Part shown: one piece after another, positions 7,639 through 53,306 of the stretch
How the letters are laid out: each line of letters opens with the position of its first letter
Position numbering within the stretch: the stretch's first letter is position 1
NCBI GenBank assembly: GCA_035536315.1
Contig: DATLOJ010000058.1
Coordinates: forward strand, 1 to 60,849
Length of the DNA stretch: 60,849 nucleotides
From: Actinomycetota bacterium
GTDB taxonomy: Bacteria > Actinomycetota > CADDZG01 > JAHWKV01
Reading direction: 5' to 3'
Position numbers and translations under genes: made by a program
The notes under the pieces: generated by a model
What the model was told of the DNA's origin: nothing
Database searches by the model: none
What the model saw: the letters and a program-made list of their open reading frames with translations, nothing else

Positions 7639-8397
7639 TCACCTGCGCGAGAGTCCCATCATCGCCAGCGACGCCAGAAGTAACGTTAGAGAAAGCAATC
7701 CTGTAAGGGCGAGCAGACCGGGCCACGATCCCTCCCATGTCACCTCCCCTAAGAACCCCTGACGCGCGAGCGCGAGAATCTTTGTCACCGGGTTGAACTT
7801 CGCGACCGTATGAATCCATCCGGAGAGAAGGTGAAGCGGCATCTGAGCCGTCGAGAGAAAAACGCTCAAGAACACAGCGGTAGTCATAAGGGGGGCTGCC
7901 TGAACGGTTCTGAACTTGAGGGCGATTGCCATGGACCACAAGCTCGCAACCACCGAGAAGCCCATCGCTGCCGCGATCAGAGGCACAACCGTAAAGGCCC
8001 CTCCCTTGAAGTTTGCCTGCCCAATGTTGGCGACGAGGAGCATCAGAGAGATCGGGATCAATGAGCGCATCGCCGCGGCAAGGGCACCCCCTGCGATGAG
8101 AGAGGTACGCGGAATCGGACTCAACAGGAACCTGTCGTAGAAGCCGCTCTCGAAATCGCGGGCAACTCCAAGTCCAGTCGTAACTCCTGCGAACGCACCC
8201 CCCATCGTCGTTGTCATTGGGATGAACCAGTCGATGCTCTTCGTCGCGGGGAACATTGGAAGATTCACGAGACTGGACAACGCGCCGGAGAAGGCGACGG
8301 TCAGAATGACCGGCATCACCAGCGAAGGTATGAAAGTGGACGCCAGTCTTGGGATCAGGCGGATGCTCCTGCCTGCTATCGCGAATGCAGCGGTCAA
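7639..8397 (-). CDS. ABC-2 type exporter permease
   Basis: Six-TM-like hydrophobic profile. Overlaps the upstream permease by 4 nt and lies in an operon with a DrrA-like ATPase. Confidence 0.8.
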   Translation of the reverse strand: MTAAFAIAGRSIRLIPRLASTFIPSLVMPVILTVAFSGALSSLVNLPMFPATKSIDWFIPMTTTMGGAFAGVTTGLGVARDFESGFYDRFLLSPIPRTSLIAGGALAAAMRSLIPISLMLLVANIGQANFKGGAFTVVPLIAAAMGFSVVASLWSMAIALKFRTVQAAPLMTTAVFLSVFLSTAQMPLHLLSGWIHTVAKFNPVTKILALARQGFLGEVTWEGSWPGLLALTGLLSLTLLLASLAMMGLSRR

Positions 8398-9188
8398 CCT
8401 GCGAGTCTCTTTCTAAGCGCTAGCAGCGAAAGCCCCACGCCCAGAACGAAGGCGGCTGCAGCCACAGCAAGAGCGCGTGTCATTGCTCCCGCGTCAAAGG
8501 GGCCGATGATCTGAGCCCGCACTCCCTCGATCAGGTGTGAGATCGGGTTGATGGAGGTGACCGACTTGAACCAGCCCTCCATCAGGTTTCTCGGGAAGAA
8601 CGCGCTCGACATGAAGATGAGGACGAAGAACATCGGAAAGCTTCCCTCCACCGCTTCACGTGAGCCAGTCCAAAGAGCAAATGAACACATCACGCCCCCC
8701 ATCCCGGCGGCAAGCAAAGCAATTACCAGTGAGACGGCAAGGACTCCCTGAAGTCCCGACTCGGCCTCCAGCCCGAACATCGCCGTTACGCCGTAAAAGA
8801 ACCAGGTCATGAAGAAACCCAGAAGCGCAGCCCCCGACACCTGCCCGACGATGATCGCTGTTCGGCGAACCGGTGATGAGAGAAGACGCTCGAAGAAGCC
8901 TCCTTCTATGTCTGCCGCCAGTGCAGAGCCGGCAGCCGTCGACCCGAAGATGGCTCCCTGGATGATCGTGGTGGCGAAAGAGAATTGAACGAATGAGTCG
9001 ACCGCGGGGAACCCGCGAAGCCGCGTGGAGTTGCCCATGGCCGCTGCGGTCATCGTTTGAAACATCAACGGAAACAACAAAGCGGGAATGATTGCAGTCG
9101 GCTGCCTGATGATATTTCTGATTGCGCGCGCTGCAAGAGCCCCGTAATGCTTCATACCGCCTCCGGGAGACATCGCATGTGCGCTCAA
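8394..9188 (-). CDS. ABC-2 type exporter permease
   Basis: Polytopic membrane protein. Overlaps the ATPase gene by 4 nt and is a paralogue of the downstream permease. Confidence 0.8.
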   Translation of the reverse strand: MSAHAMSPGGGMKHYGALAARAIRNIIRQPTAIIPALLFPLMFQTMTAAAMGNSTRLRGFPAVDSFVQFSFATTIIQGAIFGSTAAGSALAADIEGGFFERLLSSPVRRTAIIVGQVSGAALLGFFMTWFFYGVTAMFGLEAESGLQGVLAVSLVIALLAAGMGGVMCSFALWTGSREAVEGSFPMFFVLIFMSSAFFPRNLMEGWFKSVTSINPISHLIEGVRAQIIGPFDAGAMTRALAVAAAAFVLGVGLSLLALRKRLAG

Positions 9189-28356: not shown

Positions 28357-30354
28357 TCACGCAGGAGTCGCTGTCTGCTCGGCGATCTCGGATCGAAATG
28401 TCGAGACGTCTACTTTTCGAAGGAGCAGCATCGTGAACGCAAGGCCTACGGCTTCTATAAGAAACACACCGGAGTACGCCCACACGCTCGAGCTGGTAAC
28501 GCCAAGGACAAGTCCATGGATCGCCCCCCCACCGGCTGTGGCAAGCCCTTCTGCAACGGCTCGGGCCAGGGTCCAGAAACCCATGAACATCCCAACCGCG
28601 CCGGGTGTTGACATATCCATCATCAAAGAAAGGGCACCGACTGTAAGTATCCCAAGCCCGATCCCCATTAGAAGGATGGAACCTCGCAGGAGAGGCTGAT
28701 TCAGCAAGGGCCCGGACAGAGCGAGAAGAAGGAATGCCACCGAGCTGATCACCAGGCCGTAACCCGCGACCGTCTTCTTCGACTTCGTTCGGGACGCTCG
28801 CCCGCCAACAGCCATTCCGGCGAGCACCCCTGCAATTTGTATCGAGTTGAACATCGTGGTCTGCCTCACCGACAAGGAGAAGACCTCGCCTCCGAAAGGC
28901 TCGAGTACTGCTTGCTGGAGAAAGGCAAACGAAATAGCCAGAACCATGAAAGCGAAGAAGATGCGAGCCTGTTTGGAAGCGAGGGGTTTTAGCAAGCTCT
29001 CGATCGACCGATCGGGCGATTTCGGCTGCACGCCCCGCCGCTCAACTCCCGAGACCGCGACGTAGGTAAGAACCAGCAAGACTCCCGCCCCGGCCGCAAA
29101 AAGCAACTTTAGCCGTGACGCCGTGTACTCACTGAGAAAGCCGATGCTCATAGCGACCCCTGCCAAAATTCCGAGCATCAGCATCGAATACACGACTGAA
29201 GTGGTCCGCCCTCGTTCCTTTGCGTCCGTGAGATCGGCGAGCAGTGCAAAGTACGCTGCACCGGACGCGTACATGCCTGCGCCCATCAAACAAAGAACTG
29301 CTGTTGCGGCGATACCGGCCCGCACACCGCCCGCGCTTGCCATGTAAAGGGCGGCAAATGGCGTCAGGACAGTCGCCGCGGCAGTGGCAAGAGTGCCGCC
29401 GAGGATGTAGGGCGTTCGATGTTTGCCAAACACGGGCCTGCGGTCGCTCAGCCGGCCGACATAAATCGCCAGTGGGGCGGTCAGGTTGAAAGTCGCGAGG
29501 ACGGCCGCAGTCAGCCACAGCTCGATTCCGAGCTCCACCTTCATGATCCTGTTGAGAACGCCAAGAACGAGCACAGAAAGCATGCCCGCCGCGAACTCTC
29601 GAAGACCGATGCGCAATAGCCGGCGCAGCGGAATCGTAGGAGGTTGCATTGGGATCGCCAGCCTCTCCGCCTCGTCGAGCATGGTCGTTACCTGGTTCGG
29701 CTGAAGGCTCTCCCCCCTCCTGAGATCCTTGTCCGCTACTGCTGTCTCGCCTTTGTAGGGGGCAAGTTTCCCGCTTTCCAGGACGTAGATGGTGTCGCAG
29801 ACACTCTCCAGGAAAGCCCGGTCGTGCTCGACGACAACAATCCCCTTGCCTCGAGCCCGCCACTGAATGATCAACTGAGCCACTCTTGCACGCTCGGCCC
29901 CCGAAAGACCGGCCGTCGGCTCGTCTAAAAGGATCACCGAAGCTTCACCCTGAGCGGCGATGCTCAGCTCGAGCATTCTCCTCATACCGGTAGAGAGCTC
30001 ATCAACTCGCGCCTGCGATGGAACGTTTCCGCCGTTGGCACCGGCACGCAGGACCTTCCTGACCTCAGCCGCCGTGAGCGAGGGAAACATGGGGGATCCT
30101 TGAAATGTCCGATGCACCCCAAGCTCGATGCGCCGTCTCGCCGGCACCCTGAAAGTATTTGTGCCCGCTAGACGAACTTCGCCCTGGGCCGGGACAAGGC
30201 CCCCTATAGCGTCAAGCAGGGTGGTCTTTCCGCTACCGTTCGAGCCAACAACTCCAATTACCTCACCAGCAGACAGGCAAAGGTTCACCCCGTCCAGGAT
30301 CTTTCTCTCCCCGCGCGTTGCGGCCAGCCCGGCGACTTCCAGCACAACCGTCAT
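28357..30354 (-). CDS. Fusion protein: LivG-like ABC nucleotide-binding domain + PucC/BCD-family MFS-type membrane domain
   Basis: NBD motifs GSNGSGKT, LSTGMRRMLEL, ILLDEPTAGL, VVEHD (aa 1 to about 205). Then about 430 aa of multi-TM sequence with LNRIMKVELGI...APLAIYVGRLSDRRPVFGKHRTPYILGG. The ATGA overlaps the upstream gene. Confidence 0.8.
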   Translation of the reverse strand: MTVVLEVAGLAATRGERKILDGVNLCLSAGEVIGVVGSNGSGKTTLLDAIGGLVPAQGEVRLAGTNTFRVPARRRIELGVHRTFQGSPMFPSLTAAEVRKVLRAGANGGNVPSQARVDELSTGMRRMLELSIAAQGEASVILLDEPTAGLSGAERARVAQLIIQWRARGKGIVVVEHDRAFLESVCDTIYVLESGKLAPYKGETAVADKDLRRGESLQPNQVTTMLDEAERLAIPMQPPTIPLRRLLRIGLREFAAGMLSVLVLGVLNRIMKVELGIELWLTAAVLATFNLTAPLAIYVGRLSDRRPVFGKHRTPYILGGTLATAAATVLTPFAALYMASAGGVRAGIAATAVLCLMGAGMYASGAAYFALLADLTDAKERGRTTSVVYSMLMLGILAGVAMSIGFLSEYTASRLKLLFAAGAGVLLVLTYVAVSGVERRGVQPKSPDRSIESLLKPLASKQARIFFAFMVLAISFAFLQQAVLEPFGGEVFSLSVRQTTMFNSIQIAGVLAGMAVGGRASRTKSKKTVAGYGLVISSVAFLLLALSGPLLNQPLLRGSILLMGIGLGILTVGALSLMMDMSTPGAVGMFMGFWTLARAVAEGLATAGGGAIHGLVLGVTSSSVWAYSGVFLIEAVGLAFTMLLLRKVDVSTFRSEIAEQTATPA

Positions 30355-32933
30355 CTGAGCTGAACCTCGCGGGACCTTTCGCGAACGGCCCCGTCTTTGA
30401 TTTCGAACTCTCTGTGACTGCCCTCGTTCGACGAGTGGGCAACTCTGATCACCGCAGTTCCTCTGGACGCGAAGGACCTTTCGAGCTCACGCGATACCTC
30501 ATCCAAGGTGGAGTCGAGTCCCGCGTCGAGCTCGTCGAGCATCAGGACGCGTGGTCGCTGGAACATTGTTTGGCAAAGTGCCACGAACCGCTGCTCGCCT
30601 CCTGAAAGACTCCCCGCCTTTCTATCAAGCATCGGAGTGGTCCGAGGAAACGACCCGATGCACACCTGGAGCATTTTGCGGAACTGAATCAGGTCTGGGT
30701 GGGAGTTAAAGGATGCGACCCTAAGGTTTTCTCTGACCGTAAGTTCTTCGAACACCGGGTTGTCGCCATCCACGAGAACCACGCCTGCCCTGGAAACCTC
30801 ATCGGGGTAGAGGGTCCCAAGATCCATCTGTCCCGCTCGAATCGATCCACGCGAAGGAACCAGCCCGGCAATCGCCTTCAAGAAAGTTGACTTACCCGAT
30901 CCGTTCGCGCCGGTCAGGGACACAACCTCTCCAGCGTCTAGCGTCAGCGACGCTCGCACAACGTCAGCGCCACCCGGATAAGAAACCTGCAGGTCACTCA
31001 CTTCGAGAACACCGCCGAAATCCTTGCGGCCCAAAGGCGCGAGGTCACCCCCTTCTCGACTGAACATCCTTGAAACGGCGGAGGCTGAAGCAAACCCGCC
31101 CGGAAGTAAAAGCAGCAGAAGCAAGATTCCGCCCCCCGTCCCCAGCAGTTCCCATGGCCCGTTCAGAAACAATGTCGCGCCCGACACCGCTGCGGCCCCC
31201 ATCGCTCCCCCCCAAACGCTTCCGGCACCTCCAACCACAACCATCGCGGTCAGCAGAATTGAGCGGTCGGCGCCCAGCGCTGCCGGATGAAGATCGAGTT
31301 GGTTAAAGAGGTACAGGAATCCCGCGACTCCGGCAACTGCTCCCGAGAGCACGTAAGCACAGACGCGAGCAAATCCTGCATTCAATCCATAAGCAGTGGC
31401 GACCCTCTCCGAATCCCTTACGGCGAGCATCTCCAAACCAAGCCGGCTCGCTCGCATCCATCTGGCAAGCCACAGGGATCCAGCCAGGGCAAAACAAATC
31501 AATAGCGAATTCCCAGCCGACCGTCCAAGAAGAGGCCACTCGGGTCCCAGTCCAACATCAGTCCGGCGCAGGACAGACGTGAGGGTGAACAGGCCCTGTG
31601 CCGCAACCGCGAATCCGATGGTGGCAACCGCGTACGGGAAGGGGCCCTTCGACTGAGCAGGCAAGGCGGCGACAACAGAAGCGGCCGCACCTGCCACTAC
31701 GCCCGCCGCTGCGGCCGCTGGATACCCCAACGGGACTGCTGCCGCTGCCGCAAAGGATCCTGCGCCCACGACAGCCCAGTGCCCCAGCGACAGCGTCCCG
31801 GTGAACACCGCGGCGATGGAAACCGCCGCTCCGGCGAGTGCAAAAACTCCCACAGATCCGATTCGCTGCGAGGTGCTCGACCCAACGCTGACAAGCACGA
31901 AGGTGGCGAGCGAGAGAGCGGCAACCGTCAGGGCAGCCATAGCCAAAGGCCGGCCTCTTATGCGTGCCACGTCGGCAAGAGCCTTCGACCTGACCCGGAG
32001 GGCCGCCGATGCCTCTCGGTCGAGTGCCAGAACTAAGAGGGCCAGGAGGAACAAGGCAACATCTGCAACTGCCGCCCTGTCCGTCACCCAAAGCACGCAC
32101 TGGTGTGCGACGCCGGTGAACATGGAAACCGCGGTAGCGGACAGGACTCCAGCCATTCTGGCCGCGACCGCTGGCAGTAATGCGAAAAGGATGAGGCTCG
32201 CGCCAGGGCCGGTATCGAGGGCGGGTCCGGAGAGAGTGAAGGTCATCGCCCCGGCCGCCGCTGCGAGCAACCCGGCGGTCAACCATGTCAGGGCCGAGAC
32301 CCTCCGCGCAGGAATACCGAGACACGCCGAGCGCTCGAAGTTGCTTCCGACCGCACGGGCCGCAACCCCGTGAAGGCTGCGCGAGTAGAACCACTTCCCG
32401 AATGCCACTCCCAGGACGGCTAGAGCTGCCGCGAGGACATGCTGGCTTTTGAACAAGACCGGAAACACGTCAATCGATAGTTCGAAAGGTGTGATCGGTT
32501 TAGGAAGACCTCCCGAAAACAAGATTCCGGCCCGCGCTGCTCCAAACAAGTAGGCGATCCCAACGCTCGCTGCGACAAGCGTCAGAGCCGGACGCGAGCG
32601 GAAGCGCCAGAGAACGAAGTGCGAGAAGAGCCCTGCCGCCGCCCCCACCACGCATCCGGTGAGTAGCGCTCCCCAAAACCCGAATCGGGATTCGGCCACA
32701 CGCGCGACGGTAACGCCGGTCAGCAAGGCCATCGAGGGTTGGGCGAGGTTCAGAAATCCATGCGTTCTGTAAATGAGAATCAGAGCCACCGAGCTGGCTG
32801 CAGTCACCAAACCGCCAAGGGCTCCCAGTAGAACTACGCCCGGAGGAACTCCACCGAGCACCGCGAAAGCTAGGAGCAATCCTCCTGCGATGATCCAGAG
32901 AAGAAGTGGCCGGCTGCTGTTATCTGAATTCAT
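30351..32933 (-). CDS. Triple fusion: LivH-like permease + LivM-like permease + LivF-like ATPase in one polypeptide
   Basis: Two successive polytopic Liv-type permease regions, then an NBD (GANGSGKST, LSGGEQRFVALCQ, LMLDELDAGL, VAHS). ATG at 32933 chosen; the upstream part of the 929-aa ORF overlaps the binding-protein gene. Confidence 0.8.
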   Translation of the reverse strand: MNSDNSSRPLLLWIIAGGLLLAFAVLGGVPPGVVLLGALGGLVTAASSVALILIYRTHGFLNLAQPSMALLTGVTVARVAESRFGFWGALLTGCVVGAAAGLFSHFVLWRFRSRPALTLVAASVGIAYLFGAARAGILFSGGLPKPITPFELSIDVFPVLFKSQHVLAAALAVLGVAFGKWFYSRSLHGVAARAVGSNFERSACLGIPARRVSALTWLTAGLLAAAAGAMTFTLSGPALDTGPGASLILFALLPAVAARMAGVLSATAVSMFTGVAHQCVLWVTDRAAVADVALFLLALLVLALDREASAALRVRSKALADVARIRGRPLAMAALTVAALSLATFVLVSVGSSTSQRIGSVGVFALAGAAVSIAAVFTGTLSLGHWAVVGAGSFAAAAAVPLGYPAAAAAGVVAGAAASVVAALPAQSKGPFPYAVATIGFAVAAQGLFTLTSVLRRTDVGLGPEWPLLGRSAGNSLLICFALAGSLWLARWMRASRLGLEMLAVRDSERVATAYGLNAGFARVCAYVLSGAVAGVAGFLYLFNQLDLHPAALGADRSILLTAMVVVGGAGSVWGGAMGAAAVSGATLFLNGPWELLGTGGGILLLLLLLPGGFASASAVSRMFSREGGDLAPLGRKDFGGVLEVSDLQVSYPGGADVVRASLTLDAGEVVSLTGANGSGKSTFLKAIAGLVPSRGSIRAGQMDLGTLYPDEVSRAGVVLVDGDNPVFEELTVRENLRVASFNSHPDLIQFRKMLQVCIGSFPRTTPMLDRKAGSLSGGEQRFVALCQTMFQRPRVLMLDELDAGLDSTLDEVSRELERSFASRGTAVIRVAHSSNEGSHREFEIKDGAVRERSREVQLR

Positions 32934-34497
32934 CGCGGCCGTACCGACGGCCGTTTTCGGGAAATACATAGGCGCCTGCAAGGCTGCCCCCGCCTCGATG
33001 CGCCGTGTTCGACCATTGCAGCACCGTAAAGTCCCCGACGATATTTCGCTCGGCCCGGTCCATGCTGAGCAACATGTTGGAGGAGGCAGGCGCTCCGAGA
33101 CCGCTGTATCGATATGGGGAGAACGCATCGAGTCCGGCACCGAAGGTCTTCGGATTCAAATTCGGACCAGCGTTCGTGATTCCCGTCACCAGCGGAAGAA
33201 GAGCCGAGTAGATATAGGGAGCCTGGGCAGGGGGCTCACCTCGACTCATGCTCATGTACTTGGTGTACCACTCACTTTGCCGTGACTGGTCGTCAATGAC
33301 GATGTCATGCATGAACTGCGGGTCGTAACAAGTAAGACCTTTGGCCCTGCCCCACTGATTGGCGTTGTAGAGCCTCACCATCGCGTGAGAGTCCTGCCCG
33401 GAACATGGCCAGATGAAGTAGTCCGGATGGTAGTCGTGACTCTCGGCAGCCGGGGTGAATGACATCGGAGTTCCAGCGTCCGGAATGATCACGGTATTCA
33501 CCCCGGCACCGACGAATTTGGCGATCACATTCGACGACTCCCCCTGGGCATCGGTAAGGCTGGCCGAAACGGAGGCGACCTCTACAACGTTGACACCCGA
33601 AGACCGGAGCCTGGCGACTACCTCGGGGATTGCTTCGACGAGCCCTGGATACTCCGCGTAAACAAGACCAAACCTTCGCGGTTCTTGATTCACAGTTCCA
33701 CGGTATGGGTCGTCTGCGACGCGCTCGGATAGATAACCCTGGACGGCGTCGAGCTGCGCGTCGAATGAAGCTGCGGAAGGTATGCAGTACCCGTTGGTCT
33801 TGCCATACATGCCGAAGTCCACGTTGAAAGTAGCGAGGCTGAAGACGCCGGCCCTTGCGAGCCGGGGACAGGTGTAGGCCGACAAGGATCCGTGGGCAGC
33901 GACTGCCGCGAACGGTTTCAGATCGCTCGCGATGTACTCGGCGGTCGCGCTCGCGTCTTCCGGACTGCTTCCCACATCTATGACTCTTCCCACAAGCTTT
34001 CGCCCATGAAGGTTGAACGGGAAGCCCATGATCGAGCCGCCACCTGCGGCATGCTTGTTTATGTACTCGATCCAGGTCTGGAATCCAACACCCTCGTCAA
34101 CGTTGGACTCGACTCCCGTCCCTTTCAGAAAGGCGCTCGTCCTGGTCTGGTCGCCTTTCCAGTAATAGACGACCTCAATATGGGTGTCGGTGATCCCATT
34201 GATGACCGTTCCGGCTTCGACGTCCTCGCGACTAGCCTCGGCTTTGGTTCGTCTAGCCTTTTTCGCCGTGTCCGTAGCAGATGATGGTGAGCCCGGCTGC
34301 TCTTGGGGAACGGCTTCGCCCGGACCCACGAACGGGCCGGAATCCTTAAACGACGCCTTCTTATTGCCCGGCTTTCCGTCGCTTCCGCATGCCGCTGCGA
34401 ATAGCAGCAGAGCCATCACCAACGCGAGCACCCTGAAAAGCGATTTCAGCTTGATGACCCTTCCACTCCTTGGGTTGATGGGGGCGAGGCGGCGCAA
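32920..34497 (-). CDS. Lipoprotein, type I periplasmic binding protein for the second Liv-type importer
   Basis: Lipobox LLFAAAC followed by a low-complexity linker and an about 450-aa PBP-like domain. Start uncertain (TTG at 34497, 34569 or 34578). Confidence 0.72.
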   Translation of the reverse strand: MRRLAPINPRSGRVIKLKSLFRVLALVMALLLFAAACGSDGKPGNKKASFKDSGPFVGPGEAVPQEQPGSPSSATDTAKKARRTKAEASREDVEAGTVINGITDTHIEVVYYWKGDQTRTSAFLKGTGVESNVDEGVGFQTWIEYINKHAAGGGSIMGFPFNLHGRKLVGRVIDVGSSPEDASATAEYIASDLKPFAAVAAHGSLSAYTCPRLARAGVFSLATFNVDFGMYGKTNGYCIPSAASFDAQLDAVQGYLSERVADDPYRGTVNQEPRRFGLVYAEYPGLVEAIPEVVARLRSSGVNVVEVASVSASLTDAQGESSNVIAKFVGAGVNTVIIPDAGTPMSFTPAAESHDYHPDYFIWPCSGQDSHAMVRLYNANQWGRAKGLTCYDPQFMHDIVIDDQSRQSEWYTKYMSMSRGEPPAQAPYIYSALLPLVTGITNAGPNLNPKTFGAGLDAFSPYRYSGLGAPASSNMLLSMDRAERNIVGDFTVLQWSNTAHRGGGSLAGAYVFPENGRRYGRDEFR

Positions 34498-45043: not shown

Positions 45044-45676
45044 CTAATTCTCAGCCTTATGGAATCGTGAAGGATCTCGGGGCAATCCGTCGAATCCTCT
45101 CCAGGTGAATGCCAGGAGGTAGTCGGTGACGGTCTCGCGATCCGGCTTTCCTTCTGCAAGCCACCATCCGACAACCGACTCGACGGCGCCGAGTAACGCA
45201 TGCGCGTAGATAGGGGCGCCTGTCGGGTCGATGCTTCTTGCGCGCATCACATCGCCGATTGTCGAAGCCAGTCCCTGAACAATCACATTCCTTGCGTCGT
45301 GCAGATGCAGCCACACGCTGTGATCGACCTCCGCTGCGGATTGCATCAGAAGGCGGAACCCTTCCGGGTTCTCATCCGCAAACTTCACATACGCGCCCAG
45401 TCCGTCATGGAGGCGCTGCCTTGGATCCTCCGATGAGCTCATTGCTTCCCACAGAACCTTGAGGAGCCTCTGCACGTGTTCATCGAGAACGGCGATGAAC
45501 ACCTCGGTCTTGCCGTTGGGAAAGTGGTCGTAAAGGATGGGCTTGGTCACGCCGGCCCGCCTGGCGAGCTCGCCAACCTCAGTCTTCAGGTACCCCCGCT
45601 CGCCGAAGAGCTGCCGGCCTGCCGCCAGGAGTCGAAGCCTGCGCTCCTGCCTCGTCAGGCGTGGACGGTCCTTCAT
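45044..45676 (-). CDS. TetR-family transcriptional regulator, divergent from the FAS II operon (possible FasR-like role)
   Basis: HTH LLAAGRQLFGERGYLKTEVGELARRAGVTKPILYDHF. The FasR-like role is inferred from position only. Confidence 0.85.
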   Translation of the reverse strand: MKDRPRLTRQERRLRLLAAGRQLFGERGYLKTEVGELARRAGVTKPILYDHFPNGKTEVFIAVLDEHVQRLLKVLWEAMSSSEDPRQRLHDGLGAYVKFADENPEGFRLLMQSAAEVDHSVWLHLHDARNVIVQGLASTIGDVMRARSIDPTGAPIYAHALLGAVESVVGWWLAEGKPDRETVTDYLLAFTWRGFDGLPRDPSRFHKAEN

Positions 45677-45765: not shown

Positions 45766-46311
45766 GTGACGCATCCACTTTCGAGCCAATCCTCCAAAAA
45801 GGAGCTTGTTTCACGCTGGAGTGAACAAGCCTTCGAAAAGGTTTACTCACGGTATATCAAGCCGGTCCACGCATACATTCTTCGCCGCGTTCGCAACCAC
45901 CACGACGCAGAGGACATCTGCGCGCATGTCTTTGTACAGGCGTTCGACCATCTAGATCAGCAGGACGTGGAGTCACCCAGGCTCGCCTCATGGTTGTTCA
46001 CAACCGCTCGCAACGCCAGCTCTAACCACTCCAGGAGGCAACGAAAGTTCAAGGCCACGATCTCCCTCGAAGAAATACCAGATGCAGCTGGAGACTCTGA
46101 CCCTGGCGAGTTGTTTCTCAGCGGCGAGCAGCTGAGAGAGGTGCTCGCCGCCTTGGCACGCCTTCCCGAGGAGCGTCAGCGGGCCTTGATACTTCGCCTC
46201 GTCGACCAGCTCCCCTACTCGGAAGTCGCGGAACTGCTCGGTAGAAGCGAAGAGTCCTCGCGCGTCATTACCCACCGAGCGCTCGAGACACTGAAAAGGA
46301 ATGTTTCATGA
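45766..46311 (+). CDS. ECF-type RNA polymerase sigma-70 family factor
   Basis: Region 2 (YIKPVHAYILRRVRNHHDAEDICAHVFVQAF) and region 4 (LPEERQRALILRLVDQLPYSEVAELLGRSEESSRVITHRALETLK). The stop overlaps the fabD ATG. Confidence 0.85.
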   Translation: MTHPLSSQSSKKELVSRWSEQAFEKVYSRYIKPVHAYILRRVRNHHDAEDICAHVFVQAFDHLDQQDVESPRLASWLFTTARNASSNHSRRQRKFKATISLEEIPDAAGDSDPGELFLSGEQLREVLAALARLPEERQRALILRLVDQLPYSEVAELLGRSEESSRVITHRALETLKRNVS

Positions 46312-47252
46312 GCAACACCTCCACTTCCGGAACTGCGTGGATGTTTCCCGGACAGGGTTCGCAGACAGAGGGAATGCTAAGTGGCCTGTCGGCCGCCCAG
46401 CCACTTCTTAAGGAAGCTGTACGCATTCTGGGACCCTCGGCCCAAAGACTCACGGAACCCCGTCAGATGACCTGGTCTACGGACCTTGTTCAAACGGCTG
46501 TCTACATAGCCGGAGCCGGAGCCGCCAACGCCCTTAAGTCACGCGGTGTCACCCCCTCCGCGGTCCTCGGCCACAGCCTGGGTGAGGTCTCAGCGCTGGT
46601 GGCCGCCGATGTGGTCGATCCGTTGGACGGACTTCGTCTGGTCTTCGAGCGAGGTAAGGCGATGACCATAGCCGGCAAGAAAACCCCGGGAGGCATGGCT
46701 GCCGTAATAGGACTCGACTCCGAAGTCGTCGCCGGAATATGCGAATCGATCGGCCAGGTATGGGTGGTCAACTACAACTCGCCGGATCAGCTCGTAATCG
46801 CGGGCTCCGAAAAGTCCCTCGCCGCCGCGGCGGAGAAGTGTCTGCATCTGGGGGCCGTCAAAGTCAAACGGCTTGCTGTTCCGGTCGCCGCACACACGCC
46901 TTTGATGGAGCCCGCGGTCGAATCGTTTGCCAAGGTTGTAGAACAGGTTGAGTTCAGCCCTCCCGCATGCACCCTTTACTCTGCGGTGCACGCTGCTCCC
47001 AATGCGGACCCTGATGAGATCAAGCAGAACATCGTCACGGCCATTACCTCCCCTGTTCGTTTCCACCAGACCGCCGAGTCGGTCATCTCCAGCGGCATAA
47101 ACAACTTCATTGAAGTTGGGCCTGGACGAGCTCTCACCCGGATTATCGGACGCACGTTTACCGACACAACCGTCACAACAGCCGGCACCGATTCCGATGC
47201 TGAACGCATTGCTAACGAACAAACCGATCGCCCACTGGAGGTTGCTAGATGA
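46308..47252 (+). CDS. fabD: Malonyl-CoA:ACP transacylase
   Basis: FPGQGSQTEGM, GHSLGE nucleophile, VNYNSPDQLVIAG, ...AHTPLM. Confidence 0.92.
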   Translation: MSNTSTSGTAWMFPGQGSQTEGMLSGLSAAQPLLKEAVRILGPSAQRLTEPRQMTWSTDLVQTAVYIAGAGAANALKSRGVTPSAVLGHSLGEVSALVAADVVDPLDGLRLVFERGKAMTIAGKKTPGGMAAVIGLDSEVVAGICESIGQVWVVNYNSPDQLVIAGSEKSLAAAAEKCLHLGAVKVKRLAVPVAAHTPLMEPAVESFAKVVEQVEFSPPACTLYSAVHAAPNADPDEIKQNIVTAITSPVRFHQTAESVISSGINNFIEVGPGRALTRIIGRTFTDTTVTTAGTDSDAERIANEQTDRPLEVAR

Positions 47253-47566
47253 GCCAGACCATGGCAGACCCTGCCGTCGCCGAAATGGTGACGACCCGCG
47301 ACCACATGCTTTCCGAAGCAGCAACCATCGATGAGCGGATCGTTGTCGCTCCGTGTGAAGGCAGATTCAGGTTTCTGCCAGCCGAGCACTTCACAGCGGA
47401 AGGTGAGTACGTCATCGAAGGACAGGTGATCGGAGTTGTCGTCTCGACAAACGGGAAGGAAGTCGACGTCGTCACCCCATTTTCCGGCTGGGTTATGGAT
47501 TTCATGATCAAAGACGGATGGCCGGTTGTACCTTCCGAGCCGATCCTTTGGCTTAGGCCTCTTTAG
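47249..47566 (+). CDS. Small biotinyl/lipoyl-like hybrid-barrel domain protein without canonical AMKM/DKA modification motif
   Basis: IVVAPCEGRFRF...EGEYVIEGQVIGVVVSTNGKEVDVVTPFSGWVMDFMIKDGWPVVPSEPILWL follows the BCCP C-domain pattern (v.aP..G.f ... G..V..Gq.l ... G.v....v..G..V..g..L). The ATGA overlaps fabD and the gene abuts the fabH GTG. Confidence 0.6.
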   Translation: MSQTMADPAVAEMVTTRDHMLSEAATIDERIVVAPCEGRFRFLPAEHFTAEGEYVIEGQVIGVVVSTNGKEVDVVTPFSGWVMDFMIKDGWPVVPSEPILWLRPL

Positions 47567-48586
47567 GTGCCAAGAGCAGCAACGATCACTGGCCTCGGGA
47601 AGTATCTGCCGAGCCGCGTTGTCTCCAACAAAGAGGTGGCGGCCTCGGCCGGCGTTGACGAAGACTGGATCGAGGTTCGGACTGGAATCCGTGAACGGCG
47701 CATGGCTCTTCCCAGTGAATCCTCGGCATCCCTTGGGGTGATTGCCGCGGCCGAGGCACTTGCGTCCTCACCAATCGAAGCCGCCGACCTTGATCTGATC
47801 ATCGCTGCGACCTGCACACCCGATCACGTCTTCCCATCCACCGCCTCTCTCATCCAGGCAGAAGTCGGTGCAAACGCAGCGGGAGCATTCGACCTCAACG
47901 CTGCGTGTTCCGGATTCGTTTACGCGCTGGCCCTGGCTTCAGCTCACATAAACGCTGGACTAGCCAACAACGTAATGGTGGTCGGCACCGAAGTCCTCTC
48001 GCGAATAACAAACCCCACCGACCCCGTGACTGCCCCCCTGTTTGGCGATGGCGCGGGTGCTGCCGTTCTCCAGGCAGGTGCGGCGTCGCCCATTAGCTTT
48101 GTCCTGGGATCCGACGGCAAAGGTGCAGATCATCTGATCGTTCCCGCCGGAGGATCCCGGCTCCCGGCTTCGGCAAGCACCTTGGACCGTGGACAGCATT
48201 TCATTCGAATGTCAGGCAGGGAGGTCTATAGAAGCGCAGTAAGGACGATGACGATGCTCGGCCAGGAGCTCGATGCCGCTGGCTGCGATCTTTTGATCGG
48301 ACACCAGGCCAACAGCAGGATCCTCGAAGAGTGCGCCACGCAGCTCGGACTTCCTGCGGACAAGGTTTTCATGAACATCGACCACTGCGGTAACACGTCC
48401 AGCGCGTCCATCCCAATTGCGATGCACGAAGCTTGGACGGCGGGAAGGCTTAGAGAGGGGAACAAGCTGGTCCTGGTTGCCTTCGGAGCGGGATACAGCT
48501 GGGCGGGGGCGTCTCTGACCTGGACGATGCAGGACTCGCAGCAGCCAGCCATCGAAAGCCTGGATCTCGCCGGAGTTTCGTCGTGA
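47567..48586 (+). CDS. fabH: 3-oxoacyl-ACP synthase III
   Basis: EDWIEVRTGIRERR, NAACSGFVYAL (Cys), GHQANSRI (His), CGNTSSASIP (Asn). Confidence 0.92.
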   Translation: MPRAATITGLGKYLPSRVVSNKEVAASAGVDEDWIEVRTGIRERRMALPSESSASLGVIAAAEALASSPIEAADLDLIIAATCTPDHVFPSTASLIQAEVGANAAGAFDLNAACSGFVYALALASAHINAGLANNVMVVGTEVLSRITNPTDPVTAPLFGDGAGAAVLQAGAASPISFVLGSDGKGADHLIVPAGGSRLPASASTLDRGQHFIRMSGREVYRSAVRTMTMLGQELDAAGCDLLIGHQANSRILEECATQLGLPADKVFMNIDHCGNTSSASIPIAMHEAWTAGRLREGNKLVLVAFGAGYSWAGASLTWTMQDSQQPAIESLDLAGVSS

Positions 48587-49308
48587 CCATTCCCGAACAG
48601 GCGGCCGCCCTCGTGACCGGCGCAAGCAGAGGCATTGGAGCCGAGTGCGCCAAGGCGCTGGCCAACAAGGGGCTCCCCGTCGCTATCGGTTACCTGAGCG
48701 ATAAAGACGGAGCACTGGAGACGCAGGCACAGTGTCCCGGCTCCATCGTCGTAAATATCGACGTACGGGACTCCGAAAGCGTGAGCGCAGCCTTCGATGA
48801 AGTCGTTCACGAATTGGGACCGGTTCTCATCCTCGTAAACAACGCGGGCATAACGCGCGACCGGGTGCTGATCCGAATGAAGCTTCAAGATTGGGATGAC
48901 GTCATCAACACTGATCTCACCGGAGTCTTCCGATGCACTCACATCGCCCTTCCGGGGATGCTGGCGGCGCGGTGGGGCCGGGTGGTTTCGACCGGGTCGA
49001 TCGTAGGAAGCACCGGAAACCCCGGGCAAACCAACTATGCCGCCGCCAAAGCCGGGCTCATCGGATTCTCAAAATCGCTCGCGCGTGAAGTGGGGCGTCA
49101 CGGCGTAACCGTGAACGTCGTTGCGCCGGGACTTGTCGAGACCGAACTGACGTTGTCACTTTCAGAGGCTGCGAAGGGAGAGATGCTGAAGAAGACATCG
49201 ACGGGAAGAGCTTCGAGTCCGAGTGAAGTCGCAGAAGCGGTCGGATTCTGTGTCGAGTCTGCAAATCTGACTGGACAGGTAATTCACGTAGATGGAGGCA
49301 TGAACTAG
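48583..49308 (+). CDS. fabG: 3-oxoacyl-ACP reductase
   Basis: TGASRGIGAECA, NNAGIT, and YAAAKAG (Y-x3-K). The GTGA overlaps fabH. Confidence 0.9.
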   Translation: MTIPEQAAALVTGASRGIGAECAKALANKGLPVAIGYLSDKDGALETQAQCPGSIVVNIDVRDSESVSAAFDEVVHELGPVLILVNNAGITRDRVLIRMKLQDWDDVINTDLTGVFRCTHIALPGMLAARWGRVVSTGSIVGSTGNPGQTNYAAAKAGLIGFSKSLAREVGRHGVTVNVVAPGLVETELTLSLSEAAKGEMLKKTSTGRASSPSEVAEAVGFCVESANLTGQVIHVDGGMN

Positions 49309-49361
49309 CGCGGAGAGTCTTGCAGTCAACCAAAAAGGAAAGAAAACAGGAGGAAAACAAA

Positions 49362-49613
49362 ATGGCAAAGGAACAGATTTTCGAAGCGTTGAAAGAGGTA
49401 CTGAGCGTGAGGCTTCGCGTTCAGGAGGACCTGATCAAGCCAGAAGCGACGCTCGCAGAGGATCTTGGGCTCGACTCAATCGACATGATGACCGCGGTTA
49501 TGGCCATCGAGGAGAAGTTCGGCATCGAGGTATCCGACTCCGAGGTAGAAACGATCGTGACTTTGAACGACGCTGTTGAGCTCCTTGCTGCAAAGGCGCC
49601 TGCCGGTGTCTGA
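49362..49613 (+). CDS. acpP: Acyl carrier protein
   Basis: LAEDLGLDSIDMMTAVMAIEEKFG carries the DSxD phosphopantetheine Ser. AGGAGG lies upstream of the ATG at 49362. Confidence 0.92.
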   Translation: MAKEQIFEALKEVLSVRLRVQEDLIKPEATLAEDLGLDSIDMMTAVMAIEEKFGIEVSDSEVETIVTLNDAVELLAAKAPAGV

Positions 49614-50844
49614 CAAAAAACGCATCGCAGTCACCGGCATTGGCCCCGTCACTCCGATTGGAACCGGGGTCGAAGCGTTCTGGGAGTCACTGGAGTCGGG
49701 CCGCTCGGGGGTCGGGAAGCTAACGAGGTTCGACTCTTCGGACTTCCCGGTCAAGGTCGCGGCCGAACTCGACTCGTTCGACATCCACGATTACCTGGAT
49801 CCGCGCAGGGCCAGGCGGCTCGAGAGATTCTCCCAGTACGCCTTTGCGGCGGCGAAGCTCGCTCTCGACGATGCGGGAATGAAGGTTTCAGACCCGGATC
49901 CGGCACGAGTTGGGATCGTCGTTGGAACCGGCATCGGGGGCATCGCGCTGTTCGAAGAAGAGCACCGGCTGATGATGGAACGCGGGCCTCGCTTCGTTAG
50001 CCCAGAGTTGATCGCAATGATGATTCCTAACGCAGCAGCGGGTGCGCTTGCGATCGAGCTCGGCTTCACCGGCCCGAACGAATGCACCGTGACGGCCTGT
50101 GCTTCCAGCGGAAACGCGATTGCCCGTGCCGTCGACCTCATTCGGTCGGGGGCCGCCGACGTGGTCCTTGCAGGTGGAGCGGAAGCTGCAATCACTCCCC
50201 TGTCGCTTGCATCCTTCTGCTCGGCCCGCGCGCTCTCGACCCATTTCAACGATGAGCCGGAACGTGCATCGAGGCCGTTCGACTCCGAGCGCGACGGATT
50301 CGTCTTCGGCGAGGGTGCCACCATTCTCGTCATGGAGTCCTTCGAGCATGCGCAGGCCAGGGGCGCCACAGTCATCGCCGAAGTGCTGGGGTATGGACTT
50401 TCGTCCGATGCGTACCACGTGGTAGCCCCGCACCCTGAGGGGGCCGGAGCTACCGCAGCAATGACGTCGGCCCTGCGTGACTCAGATCTGATGGCTTCAG
50501 AGATCGGCTACATCAACGCGCACGGAACCTCGACACCCCTCGGCGACATCTCGGAGACGAAAGCCATCCGAAAGGTCTTCGGAGACACTCCCCCACCGGT
50601 CTCGTCTACGAAGTCCATGACCGGCCATCTTCTTGGAGCGGCCGGGTCAACGGAGGTGGCCGCAACAGTGCTCGCCATGAACCATCAGGTGTTGCCCCCG
50701 ACTATCAACTACGAGACCCCCGACCCCGACTGCGATCTTGATGTCGTGCCCAACCAATCCCGGCCCGGCAAGTTCAACATCGCCCTTTCCAACTCCTTTG
50801 GGTTCGGTGGGCATAACGCATCGATAGTCGTCGCGGCCGTTTGA
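49606..50844 (+). CDS. fabF: 3-oxoacyl-ACP synthase II
   Basis: RIAVTGIGPVTPIG, active-site TVTACASSG (Cys), INAHGTSTP and GHLLGAAG (His, His). The GTG at 49606 overlaps the acpP end. Confidence 0.92.
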   Translation: MSDKKRIAVTGIGPVTPIGTGVEAFWESLESGRSGVGKLTRFDSSDFPVKVAAELDSFDIHDYLDPRRARRLERFSQYAFAAAKLALDDAGMKVSDPDPARVGIVVGTGIGGIALFEEEHRLMMERGPRFVSPELIAMMIPNAAAGALAIELGFTGPNECTVTACASSGNAIARAVDLIRSGAADVVLAGGAEAAITPLSLASFCSARALSTHFNDEPERASRPFDSERDGFVFGEGATILVMESFEHAQARGATVIAEVLGYGLSSDAYHVVAPHPEGAGATAAMTSALRDSDLMASEIGYINAHGTSTPLGDISETKAIRKVFGDTPPPVSSTKSMTGHLLGAAGSTEVAATVLAMNHQVLPPTINYETPDPDCDLDVVPNQSRPGKFNIALSNSFGFGGHNASIVVAAV

Positions 50845-51581
50845 TGGGCCGCTTCGAGGGCAAGGTCGTTGCAATCACCGGAGGATCGAAGGGGATCGGC
50901 CGGGCAATAGCCCTCCGCCTTTCGTCAGAGGGGGCCTCCATCGCATTCTCCTGGTTCCGAGATGGAAAAGCCGCGGAGAAGATGCAGATCGAGCTGGAGG
51001 AGCGGGGAGTGCGGGCCGTCGCAGTTCAGGCGTTTCTGGGTGATGAGGATGCTCCGGCAAGGTTCATCGACTCGGCGCGGGCCGAGCTCGGTGAGCCGTC
51101 CATTCTCGTTTCAAATGCCGCCACGGGAGTCCAACGACCGCTCATGAAAATCAAGAAATCCCATTTGGACTGGACGATGGAAACCAATGTCAACGCACTG
51201 CTTCGCTTGGTCCAGGCGGGAGCGGCGTGGGAGTCCATCCTTGCCCTCTCCAGCATGGGTTCTTCCCGAGTGATTCCCAACTACGGTGTTGTCGGAGCCT
51301 CGAAGAGTGCCATCGAAACCTTGATCCGCTACCTGGCCTTCGAGCTTGCTCCGGGCTGCAGAGCGAACACGATTGTTGCAGGGGCAGTCGACACCGACTC
51401 ACTTCGGAAGTTCCCGGCGGCAGAAGCCATCCTCTCAGAAGCCAAAGTAAAAACTCCCGCTGGCCGCGTTGTGCAGCCCGAAGACGTCGCGTCGGTTGCC
51501 GCTTTCCTTCTCTCTGAGGACGCGAGCATGATCACGGGTCAGACGGTAGTGGTCGACGGCGGTTACTCGCTCGTCAGTTAG
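50844..51581 (+). CDS. fabL: SDR, FabL-type enoyl-ACP reductase candidate
   Basis: ITGGSKGIGRAIA and SSMGSSRVIPNYGVVGASKSAIETLIRYLAFEL with Y-x6-K spacing (fabG has Y-x3-K). Last gene of the fab operon; TGATG overlap with fabF. Confidence 0.68.
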   Translation: MGRFEGKVVAITGGSKGIGRAIALRLSSEGASIAFSWFRDGKAAEKMQIELEERGVRAVAVQAFLGDEDAPARFIDSARAELGEPSILVSNAATGVQRPLMKIKKSHLDWTMETNVNALLRLVQAGAAWESILALSSMGSSRVIPNYGVVGASKSAIETLIRYLAFELAPGCRANTIVAGAVDTDSLRKFPAAEAILSEAKVKTPAGRVVQPEDVASVAAFLLSEDASMITGQTVVVDGGYSLVS

Positions 51582-51600: not shown

Positions 51601-53058
51601 TTAGCGGCGGTGCTGGGGCCCCCGGCGTGCCGGCCTTCGCCCAGATCGCCGAGATGAGCTGTGCCGCGGCTTGTAAGAGACGACTCTGAAGGCAACCTCG
51701 GTTAGAGGGTCCCGCAGGAAAACGCCTAGAGCAATCAAGACCAGGGCCGTAAAGGCCGTGGGCCAGACCGGTACGGGACCCGTGGCCGGCATCGTCCTAC
51801 CGGCAAGGCGAGCCGGCCGCGTGACGGCGGGGGCGACTACCGTGACGGGTGCAGTCGGGCCACCGGCAACCGGGTAACCGCCCTGGGCAGTGCCTCCGAC
51901 ATTGTTCAGGTACTCGCCGGGAACGCCCGAGACATTTACGTCGAAATGAAGGCTCACGCTCCCGCCACCGGGCACATCAAAAGGTCCGTTCCAAACATGC
52001 TGTTGCCCGGTGATTACCGGATCTGCAGTCGTTACCCCCGTGGTGGTTCCAGCCCTGTAGACGAACCCGTCGGGAAGAGCGTCCTCGATGGTGTTCAAAG
52101 TCACGGTTTCGCCATTGGGATTCGAGATCGTGATCGTGTATCCGTTGATCGCGCTCGGAGAAGACGTGGCGCTGTCCGCGGTCTTGGTGGCAGGCAGTGC
52201 CATCCGGCCGATGGGCGAGAAACGTGTGAGGTGCGAGAAAGTTCGAGTCGCCGAGGGATCGATGCTAGCCGACCAGCTGATACCGGCCCCATTGTCCTGC
52301 TCCTGCTCGCACTCACAGGTGTTGGGGAATGCAGTGTGTCCCCCGATCCACTGCCACACCTCGGAGTAGCGAGCCTGGTAGAAGGACGAGCCTGAAGTTA
52401 GGGGCACCCACTCCTCGATGCGGCTATCCGGGACGTTATTGGGGTTGACCGAGCATCCGATGGAGTCTTCCGCAGCATTTCGGAAGCCGAACCCAACATC
52501 AGACCCGGCCAGGAAGCAGTCTCCCGCTCTGTACATGATCAAGTCGGTGACCGTCGTGGTCGTGTTCTCCATGGCGACGTCGGTACGGTAGACCTCCTGC
52601 CCGACAATGTAGCTGTCGGTCTCGGTGATTCGGATTCCCGTCGTTCCGACGTCGACCACAGTCACTACACGGAATGGATTGGCCGCGGTTCCGGCCCCCG
52701 TCACACCTGACTGGCTGACGGGGGTGAAGACGGTTCGGGCACCGAGGCTCCCAGTAGCCGTTGAATCCAGGTTCGCGAAGTCCGGTGAGTACAGCTGGTC
52801 GGCTATGACGACGAAGGTTCCGCAGTCGGCGGGTTCCGTTCCGGGAGAGTAGAACTGGTGCGTCGAGTCCTGGACGTGGTGAACCTGGCATCCGAGAGAG
52901 TTGCCGATGTAAATATGGGACAACGGCCCCGACGATTCGATGATCGCGTGCGGGACGGCAGCGCCGACGAGGGACGGGTTGGCGACTACCAGTAGGAGGG
53001 TAACCGCCAGCAGGGCAGCAGTCCTCACGAAGACGGCAGCCGGCAGTTTCTTAACCAT
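51601..53058 (-). CDS. Secreted surface protein with DUF11-like fold and C-terminal anchor-like segment
   Basis: Signal peptide MVKKLPAAVFVRTAALLAVTLLLVVA. TITISNPNGETVTLNTIEDALPDGFVY...VSLHFDVNV resembles the DUF11 'conserved repeat domain'. C-terminus is MPATG + hydrophobic helix + an Arg-rich tail of about 40 aa. Confidence 0.7.
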   Translation of the reverse strand: MVKKLPAAVFVRTAALLAVTLLLVVANPSLVGAAVPHAIIESSGPLSHIYIGNSLGCQVHHVQDSTHQFYSPGTEPADCGTFVVIADQLYSPDFANLDSTATGSLGARTVFTPVSQSGVTGAGTAANPFRVVTVVDVGTTGIRITETDSYIVGQEVYRTDVAMENTTTTVTDLIMYRAGDCFLAGSDVGFGFRNAAEDSIGCSVNPNNVPDSRIEEWVPLTSGSSFYQARYSEVWQWIGGHTAFPNTCECEQEQDNGAGISWSASIDPSATRTFSHLTRFSPIGRMALPATKTADSATSSPSAINGYTITISNPNGETVTLNTIEDALPDGFVYRAGTTTGVTTADPVITGQQHVWNGPFDVPGGGSVSLHFDVNVSGVPGEYLNNVGGTAQGGYPVAGGPTAPVTVVAPAVTRPARLAGRTMPATGPVPVWPTAFTALVLIALGVFLRDPLTEVAFRVVSYKPRHSSSRRSGRRPARRGPQHRR

Positions 53059-53143
53059 TGAATGGATCCCTTCGCTCCCCGGGCTTGGACCGCAGGAGAA
53101 TACTCGAAAACTCTGCCGACGCGGCGAATTGTCTCGAATTCTC

Positions 53144-53306
53144 AGTGCTCCGTCAGGTGACGTTGGTGATGTTAGGGCGGATGCAGGGGTTTCGTCAGGC
53201 AAGCCGCAGGGAGCCCGCATACCAAAAGGTATGTGGGCGACCGAGAACGCAGCATGGCGGAAGCCTGCGCCGCACCAACGCGGCGAACGTCGCCTGACGG
53301 AGCACT
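53144..53306 (+). repeat. 21-bp inverted repeat enclosing about 120 nt in the typA upstream region (structured leader RNA or MITE-like element)
   Basis: AGTGCTCCGTCAGGTGACGTT (53144-53164) pairs with AACGTCGCCTGACGGAGCACT (53286-53306). 20 Watson-Crick pairs plus one U-G, which is a wobble only in the plus-strand transcript. An internal hairpin CCGCATACC-AAAA-GGTATGTGG is present. Confidence 0.6.

Follow-up and report, generated by a model that had tools for sequence, protein, structure and literature searches.

The question raised by this locus is which role a small protein resembling the biotin carboxyl carrier protein (BCCP) plays in an operon for type II fatty-acid synthesis (FAS II). Its open reading frame (ORF), here called X, lies between fabD and fabH in a stretch of DNA of 60,849 nt, referred to as the window. 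A previous reading of the sequence alone had described X as a BCCP-like barrel in which the biotinylation motif is missing, and which could be either an unmodified scaffolding or regulatory subunit or a new swinging-arm protein. According to our analysis, X is probably a cofactor-free barrel derived from BCCP and acts as an accessory domain or subunit in the initiation of FAS II, the step of FabD and FabH. The gene, its two neighbours and the motif preceding it are as follows:

47249..47566, + strand: X, a BCCP-like protein of 105 aa lacking the attachment lysine (ORF list and sequence, phmmer and profile relatives, syntenic operons)
46308..47252, + strand: fabD, malonyl-CoA:ACP transacylase (MCAT), 314 aa (Acyl_transf_1 E 1e-37; TIGR00128 E 1.4e-67)
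47567..48586, + strand: fabH, KAS III, 339 aa (NF006829 E 1.8e-107; ACP_syn_III and ACP_syn_III_C)
47237..47241, + strand: Shine-Dalgarno-like GGAGG within the 3' end of fabD, 7 nt 5' of the X start (read from the sequence)

The tight coupling of X to both neighbours, which the sequence-only reading had pointed out, can be read directly from the sequence. The ATG of X (47249-47251) overlaps the TGA of fabD (47250-47252) as ATGA, and its TAG (47564-47566) abuts the GTG of fabH (47567) with zero gap. The FabD translation of the window contains the GHSLGE and HTPLM motifs, and its matches to Pfam and TIGR00128 identify it as an ordinary MCAT. Within X itself, two parts can be distinguished:

47249..47335, + strand: N-terminal tail, aa 1-29 (predicted local distance difference test, pLDDT, 52-72 over residues 1-30; length and sequence vary in the alignment)
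47336..47557, + strand: barrel-sandwich hybrid domain of the biotinyl type, aa 30-103 (AlphaFold2, Foldseek, profile and hhalign)

X belongs to the biotinyl/lipoyl barrel-sandwich hybrid superfamily (PF00364 and its clan), whose flattened beta-barrel is made up of two quasi-symmetric halves with four strands each. The sequence of X alone matches the Pfam family Biotin_lipoyl (PF00364) with an E-value of 0.003 and 17.8 bits, not reaching the gathering score of 22.1, and NCBIfam NF005457 (PRK07051, small 'acetyl-CoA carboxylase' barrel proteins) with an E-value of 3.2e-4 and 20.8 bits, under the curated cut-off of 87 bits. A profile built from 50 family members, searched against the PDB sequences, found BCCP-type biotinyl domains with a best E-value of 1.2e-11, among them the transcarboxylase 1.3S and Pyrococcus horikoshii BCCP (1e-11 to 1e-10) and Escherichia coli BCCP (7e-9), and hhalign aligned the family profile with residues 76-155 of E. 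coli AccB at a probability of 93.7% (E 1.9e-7). PF00364 is matched at E<=0.01 by 70 of 83 family members. The AlphaFold2 (AF2) model computed from an 83-sequence alignment has an overall pLDDT of 87.8, with about 97-99 for residues 31-100 (in blocks of ten), and its seven strands all lie within residues 30-103; from the X sequence alone, AF2 gave a poor model with a pLDDT of 46. The best Foldseek matches of the model are BCCP domains with a probability of 1.00, the target-normalised template modelling (TM) score being 0.84 for P. horikoshii BCCP (5gua, root-mean-square deviation 2.2) and 0.77 for E. coli BCCP (1bdo). Structure model, structural comparison, profile search and profile alignment thus agree with the earlier description of a BCCP-like barrel, and the formal comparison with the biotinyl/lipoyl fold, on which that description had been made to depend, finds the similarity.

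In detail, X and the biotinyl domain of AccB/BCCP share the fold, recognisable sequence homology and the symmetric xPxxGxx and EGxxVxxGQ strand motifs, and the thumb-like segment is partly retained in X. However, X has a glycine at the position of the biotinyl lysine and no MKM, its hairpin is variable or truncated in the family, the N-terminal BCCP region is missing, and it is encoded in or fused to fabD, not beside accC. The lipoyl domains of E2 proteins and GcvH have the same fold as well; the best single-sequence PDB match of X is the lipoyl domain of E2o, and the family profile reaches an E-value of 2e-9. In contrast to X, which has no E2 or glycine-cleavage context, these proteins carry a lipoyl lysine, and it aligns to Gly69 of X. 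Gly69 is part of the following turn:

47447..47458, + strand: hairpin turn T67-N68-G69-K70 (three alignments; AF2 turn between strands 60-66 and 71-75)

Three independent alignments place Gly69 (47453-47455) at the canonical position of the biotin or lipoyl lysine and Lys70 (47456-47458) one position further on, in agreement with the offset noted earlier: hhalign sets K122 of E. coli AccB opposite Gly69, and the single-sequence PDB search does the same with the lipoyl lysine (DKA/DKT) of the E2o domain 9rca. In the AF2 model, Lys70 sits at the hairpin tip, at the end of the 67-70 turn, which answers the question about its location that the earlier reading had put to AlphaFold. The 'single Lys' of that reading is correct for the hairpin, but not for the whole protein, in which K88 is a second lysine.

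The location of Lys70 at the tip, one residue off the canonical position, is what a new carrier would build on, in which Lys70 (or Lys88) is biotinylated, lipoylated or otherwise acylated and the group is swung between FabD and FabH. This is extremely improbable in view of the family. Lysine occurs in at most 1% of the members at the G69 column, the canonical column being glycine, and in 2-4% at the K70 column. The highest lysine frequency of any column in 339 aligned domains is 7%, at an R/K position on the first strand, with at most 2% in the hairpin columns, and lysine is wholly absent from 65% of the free and 80% of the fused domains. Furthermore, conservation within the domain is lowest in the hairpin, and the segment between its strands is shortened from 8 to 4 residues in 86 of the 339 domains, so that a quarter of them lack the tip. 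The M-K-M or D-K-A context is missing around Lys70, and biotin protein ligase and the lipoyl ligases depend on where the lysine lies as well as on the residues around it. Neither X nor the family shows the biotinyl lysine in (A/V)-M-K-M at the hairpin tip that marks a functional BCCP, and the D-K-A/T lysine of lipoyl domains and GcvH is likewise absent at the tip in a family without any conserved lysine. Because no column is rich in lysine, most members are lysine-free and the hairpin is often cut or variable, the alignments exclude a conserved lysine-linked prosthetic group for the family. The family shows no other recognisable motif for attachment either. Lys70 of X is best seen as incidental, and the swinging-arm proposal is not upheld.

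The relatives on which these frequencies are based surfaced in an exhaustive HMMER search, whereas a word-indexed homologue search with X returned nothing but X itself. With X alone as the query, phmmer over 1.84 billion representatives yielded 143 representatives at E<=1e-3, mostly of 80-150 aa and 24 of them at E<=1e-10, with family matches down to 3.8e-23. The profile of 50 family members found 1419 clusters; its E-value of 4.3e-30 for X is partly circular, as X is among the 50 source sequences. Clusters with an organism name derive from metagenome-assembled genomes (MAGs) of Acidimicrobiales or Actinomycetota. The JGI label of family members is 'biotin carboxyl carrier protein' or 'AcrA', that of NCBI is 'hypothetical protein'. 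The consensus of the family reads GE..VPER(V/L)VV(A/S)P..G.F.P.P....EGE.V..GQ..G.V...g...V.SPF.G..MG.L...GE.V..GQP.AWLR, with E29-R30 in the first strand and W101-L102-R103 in the last strand as family-specific conserved residues. By this consensus, the lack of a conserved lysine and the location in or next to fabD/fabH, X belongs to the family as defined here, namely the C-terminal barrel of FabD. It is 57-59% identical to P0186, P0219, P0222, P0229 and P0247, of which P0219 is located in a matching sigma-fabD-X-fabH operon. Pfam contains no dedicated model for the family, whose members weakly match PF00364 and other hybrid-barrel families. Judging from these comparisons, the X family is real and conserved.

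Some of the matches were set aside. The long multi-match phmmer proteins P0047, P0084 and P0092 are Ig/cadherin-type repeat proteins and are regarded as composition or strand-repeat artefacts, while P0004 (3658 aa, 29 matched stretches) was removed on its match pattern alone. P0101 proved to be a true biotinyl protein. L007, a match from a metagenome pattern scan, is a membrane-fusion protein of the HlyD type with the common word GEYVIEGQ and represents a superfamily relative, not an orthologue.

Several representatives of about 400 aa carry FabD at the N-terminus and the X domain at the C-terminus. A FabD-X profile was built from four such fused proteins, and the best 120 clusters found with it are all 389-459 aa long with 99-100% coverage; hmmsearch with the X profile detected the X domain in every one of the 120, from about residue 317 onwards. 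Named fusions are annotated as 'ACP S-malonyltransferase [Acidimicrobiales bacterium]'. Their catalytic domain is the same as that of FabD in the window, itself a normal MCAT. Canonical FabD of about 300 aa, however, ends after the transacylase fold, as in the 303-aa FabD of the locus L001, whereas the Acidimicrobiales form adds the barrel, either fused or as a coupled gene. The tail of X (aa 1-29) corresponds to the linker between FabD and the domain in the fused proteins; this linker is the split point in the window, where the reading frame of X differs from that of fabD. Overlaps of 4-8 nt between fabD and X recur in L008, L009, L014 and L016, whose X is 40-59% identical to that of the window. 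X is thus a C-terminal domain split off from a FabD of the Acidimicrobiales type, and the split is a stable gene fission, not an error. The earlier view of X as an independent insert between fabD and fabH is thus replaced by that of a split-off FabD domain, of which at least 120 clusters have the fused form. Free and fused domains mostly fall into separate clusters. For a few free domains, the identity to a fused one is 60-67%, and fission or fusion may thus have occurred more than once.

That the split merely reflects a frameshift artefact is ruled out by the depth of the source soil metagenome, in which the region is covered 39x with zero indels, and by the same split in other lineages. Alternatively, X would be a decaying remnant, separated from fabD by a recent frameshift and nonfunctional in this genome. 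The differing frame and the split within the linker of the fused form would be expected in that case, but the ATGA-type split in at least four other lineages, the good Shine-Dalgarno motif before the ATG, the very high AF2 confidence for the barrel and the lack of indels make it very improbable. A variant strain from a beach-sand metagenome also speaks against decay, since its three substitutions in X comprise V14M in the tail and only synonymous changes, two in number, in the barrel. A search for RNA evidence for X turned up its sequence in DNA metagenome runs only. The minus-strand ORFs 47245-47511 and 46976-47389, which overlap X, are regarded as by-products of the high G+C content.

The genomic context of the domain was compared in 13 distinct loci including the window:

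Window, L009, L016: sigma factor gene, fabD, X, fabH and further genes
L008, L014: fabD, X, fabH, fabG, acpP, fabF, carboxyltransferase gene, short-chain dehydrogenase/reductase (SDR) gene
L012, L018: divergent MerR-type gene, then X, fabH, acpP, fabF, SDR gene; fabD absent
L020, L021: fused FabD-X gene, fabH, fabG, acpP and further genes
L023: Sfp-type phosphopantetheinyl transferase (PPTase) fused to X (458-1582), KAS III gene directly after it; the upstream gene ends like a non-ribosomal peptide synthetase module
L011: X, then a gene for a tetratricopeptide repeat protein
L025: fusion of a cyclic-nucleotide (cNMP)-binding domain and X (866-1612), then another cNMP-binding protein
L026: fusion of X and an AMP-binding domain, located in a cluster for lipid metabolism; the genes of the contig are fragmented

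In 10 of the 13 loci, a KAS III gene lies directly 3' of the X domain, be it free, fused to FabD or fused to the PPTase (window, L008, L009, L012, L014, L016, L018, L020, L021 and L023), and this set includes L012 and L018, which have no fabD. The sequence-only reading knew of no such barrel as a fixed component of a fabD-fabH junction and had suggested its phyletic pattern as a check; X is indeed a fixed component here, as the arrangement recurs in independent contigs and most relatives are fused to FabD. The cNMP-binding-X and X-AMP-binding fusions suggest a portable interaction module, and the former suggests a regulated version of the activity of the barrel.

Taken together, the loss of lysine and the linkage with FabD and FabH favour the unmodified scaffolding or regulatory subunit, the first of the two options named earlier, which fits the data. 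In most Acidimicrobiales the barrel is the C-terminal domain of FabD, on a flexible linker of 20-40 residues, while in the genome of the window the gene is split within this linker and its two halves would be produced by translational coupling at the ATGA. According to the mechanism that we propose, the barrel would act as a protein-protein docking module, not as a carrier, and KAS III (FabH) is the partner that we favour, so that FabD, the producer of malonyl-ACP, may be kept beside FabH as its first consumer. Within this general reading, FabH is the leading, albeit tentative, candidate for the docking partner and is favoured because the adjacency persists when the upstream or fused partner changes (L012, L018, L023). 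An acetyl- or acyl-CoA carboxylase, the docking surfaces for ACP, to which X would bind as an acidic look-alike of ACP or BCCP, and FabD itself in an intramolecular role are each an unlikely partner, with the remainder left to others. A narrower version, in which the barrel is a portable KAS III targeting tag that holds FabD, or elsewhere the PPTase or the cyclic-nucleotide sensor, on FabH, is conceivable but doubtful.

Given that the hairpin is variable and in some members truncated, another part of the barrel may well form the working surface. In established structures of biotinyl domains, the first and last strands lie side by side near the linker, at the far end from the hairpin, and by analogy the conserved E29-R30 and W101-L102-R103 would be placed there. 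A lysine-free and cofactor-free use of the same fold is also found in the barrels of the membrane-fusion proteins HlyD, AcrA and MexA, which serve purely as protein-packing modules and to which the family shows weak matches (HlyD_3 in 14 of 83 members, MexA and AcrA with the profile against the PDB, BesA with Foldseek). However, these barrels are split by a coiled-coil hairpin and belong to periplasmic transport adaptors, whereas the barrel of X is uninterrupted and encoded in a FAS II operon, and neither a signal peptide nor a membrane segment can be recognised in X.

Several points weigh against a docking module for FabH. Three of the 13 loci (L011, L025 and L026) have no adjacent fabH, and close overlaps of start and stop codons are common to the whole operon of the window, not only to X and fabH. 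Adjacency of fabD and fabH is common in Actinobacteria anyway, for example in the fabD-fabH-acpP-fabF operon of Streptomyces, so that a C-terminal domain of FabD adjoins fabH automatically. An alignment of FabH from loci with and without X revealed no feature specific to the X-linked FabH. Finally, the X of the window differs from the family in that several common arginines are gone (ERVR to WPVV) and in that it is unusually acidic, with an isoelectric point (pI) of 4.4 as opposed to a median of 5.2 for the domain, and its subgroup may behave differently. As a further comparison, a scan of GTDB genomes with FabH gave as best relative a protein of 45% identity from an Actinomycetota MAG with the order fabZ-fabH-fabD and no X.

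The proximity of X to BCCP allows another explanation, according to which X is a decoy that occupies the docking place of BCCP on the biotin carboxylase (BC) or carboxyltransferase (CT) of an acyl-CoA carboxylase. Malonyl-CoA synthesis would then be throttled, or FabD would be docked on the carboxylase and malonyl-CoA handed directly to ACP. The precedent comes from plants, where the BADC proteins are described as BCCP homologues without a biotin attachment site that regulate the heteromeric acetyl-CoA carboxylase (ACCase) (10.1101/634550, PMC12706156). X, too, is a relative of BCCP without the attachment site that is tied to fatty-acid synthesis, a likeness to BADC in kind that is no evidence of common descent. 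The BCCP domains nearest to X in sequence and fold include the AccB of acetyl-CoA carboxylase (ACC), the 'thumb' segment is partly retained as described above, and a PF01039 carboxyltransferase gene is part of the operon in L008 and L014. These are, however, the only 2 of the 13 loci with such a gene; genes for ACC, BirA and PII were not found in the 60-kb window, and none of the loci examined showed a gene for biotin carboxylase beside X. In plastids, a BADC is a full-length subunit of the BC/BCCP subcomplex that resembles BCCP throughout, whereas X is a bacterial barrel with a short tail, usually fused to FabD, and lacks the N-terminal part of full-length BCCP or BADC. In addition, the hairpin, which in BCCP enters the active sites of BC and CT, is the very part that is least conserved and often truncated in X, and a permanent fusion of FabD with a competitive inhibitor of ACC is hard to rationalise. 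On balance, a BADC-like decoy is unlikely.

The acidity of the domain, mentioned above for the family and more so for the X of the window, also allows X to be regarded as a look-alike of ACP or BCCP that lies on the basic ACP-binding patches of FabD, FabH, PPTases or acyl-AMP ligases and acts as a pseudo-substrate gate or regulator. Every enzymatic fusion or neighbour partner (FabD, the Sfp-type PPTase, the AMP-binding enzyme and KAS III) uses ACP or CoA, and the cNMP-binding-X fusion suggests a regulated output domain. The argument is purely inferential, however, and the PPTase and AMP-binding fusions are represented by one cluster each and the cNMP-binding fusion by two, the AMP-binding fusion moreover on a contig with fragmented genes. 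We know of no barrel-sandwich domain that mimics ACP. This explanation is rather improbable.

The docking barrel as the preferred reading has consequences beyond this locus. Type II fatty-acid synthesis is usually described in terms of freely diffusing enzymes and FabD as a single-domain enzyme, whereas a large, mostly uncultured actinobacterial lineage from soil and beach-sand metagenomes has an additional conserved FabD domain or a coupled subunit. Within the literature searched, no description was found of a barrel linked to FabD or of a BCCP without lysine in bacterial fab operons. Should the barrel indeed dock FabD to either FabH or the carboxylase, this would provide direct evidence, from genomes, of an organised hand-over of substrate at the start of the pathway, and the barrel would be a bacterial counterpart in kind to plant BADC. 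Hundreds of proteins of the family labelled 'biotin carboxyl carrier protein', 'AcrA', 'hypothetical protein' or 'ACP S-malonyltransferase' are mislabelled, which would inflate the counts of biotin-dependent enzymes in metagenomes.

The operon of the window has the order ECF-type sigma factor gene, fabD, X, fabH, fabG, acpP, fabF and a gene for an SDR resembling enoyl-ACP reductase. The genes around fabD, X and fabH are as follows:

45044..45676, - strand: TetR-family regulator, divergent, 5' of the operon (TetR_N, TetR_C_46)
45766..46311, + strand: ECF-type sigma factor, first gene of the operon (Sigma70_r2, Sigma70_r4_2; its stop overlaps the fabD start as ATGA)
48583..51581, + strand: rest of the FAS II operon (Pfam matches, ORF list), consisting of the next four genes
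48583-49308, + strand: fabG
49320-49613, + strand: acpP
49576-50844, + strand: fabF
50841-51581, + strand: SDR resembling enoyl-ACP reductase

A sigma factor that is co-translated with FAS II genes is unusual. The order of the ECF sigma factor gene and fabD is also found in L009 and L016, in the latter with an ORF of 57 aa between the two. The divergent regulator is of the TetR type (TetR_C_46) in the window and L009, and resembles MerR/Rv1828_C in L008, L011, L012 and L018; both types are candidate fab regulators in these bacteria. In L009, which is the closest relative of the operon in the window, a gene for the biotin transporter BioY (8254-8844) lies just 3' of the fab genes and acpS is located inside the operon, neither of which is present at the matching place in the window. 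The listed start of acpP is a TTG, which adds an extension of 13 residues rich in K and E, and the ATG at 49359 (MAKEQIF...) is the likelier start. The listed TTG start of fabF, which overlaps the end of acpP by 38 nt, is probably too early as well.

Outside the operon, a few other genes of the window deserve mention. Two adjacent transporter fusions on the minus strand, both unusual, overlap by 4 nt: in the first (28357-30354), an ABC ATPase domain is fused to a PUCC/MFS-type permease, and in the second (30351-33140), a permease of the branched-chain type (BPD_transp_2) is fused to an ABC ATPase. An ORF of 804 aa at 4880-7297, also on the minus strand, matches none of the Pfam families at E<=1e-5. 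Immediately past the fab operon, the opposite strand encodes a DUF11-type protein of 539 aa (51601-53220, - strand) with an N-terminal hydrophobic stretch and a hydrophobic segment near the C-terminus followed by an Arg-rich tail, which is possibly a surface protein.

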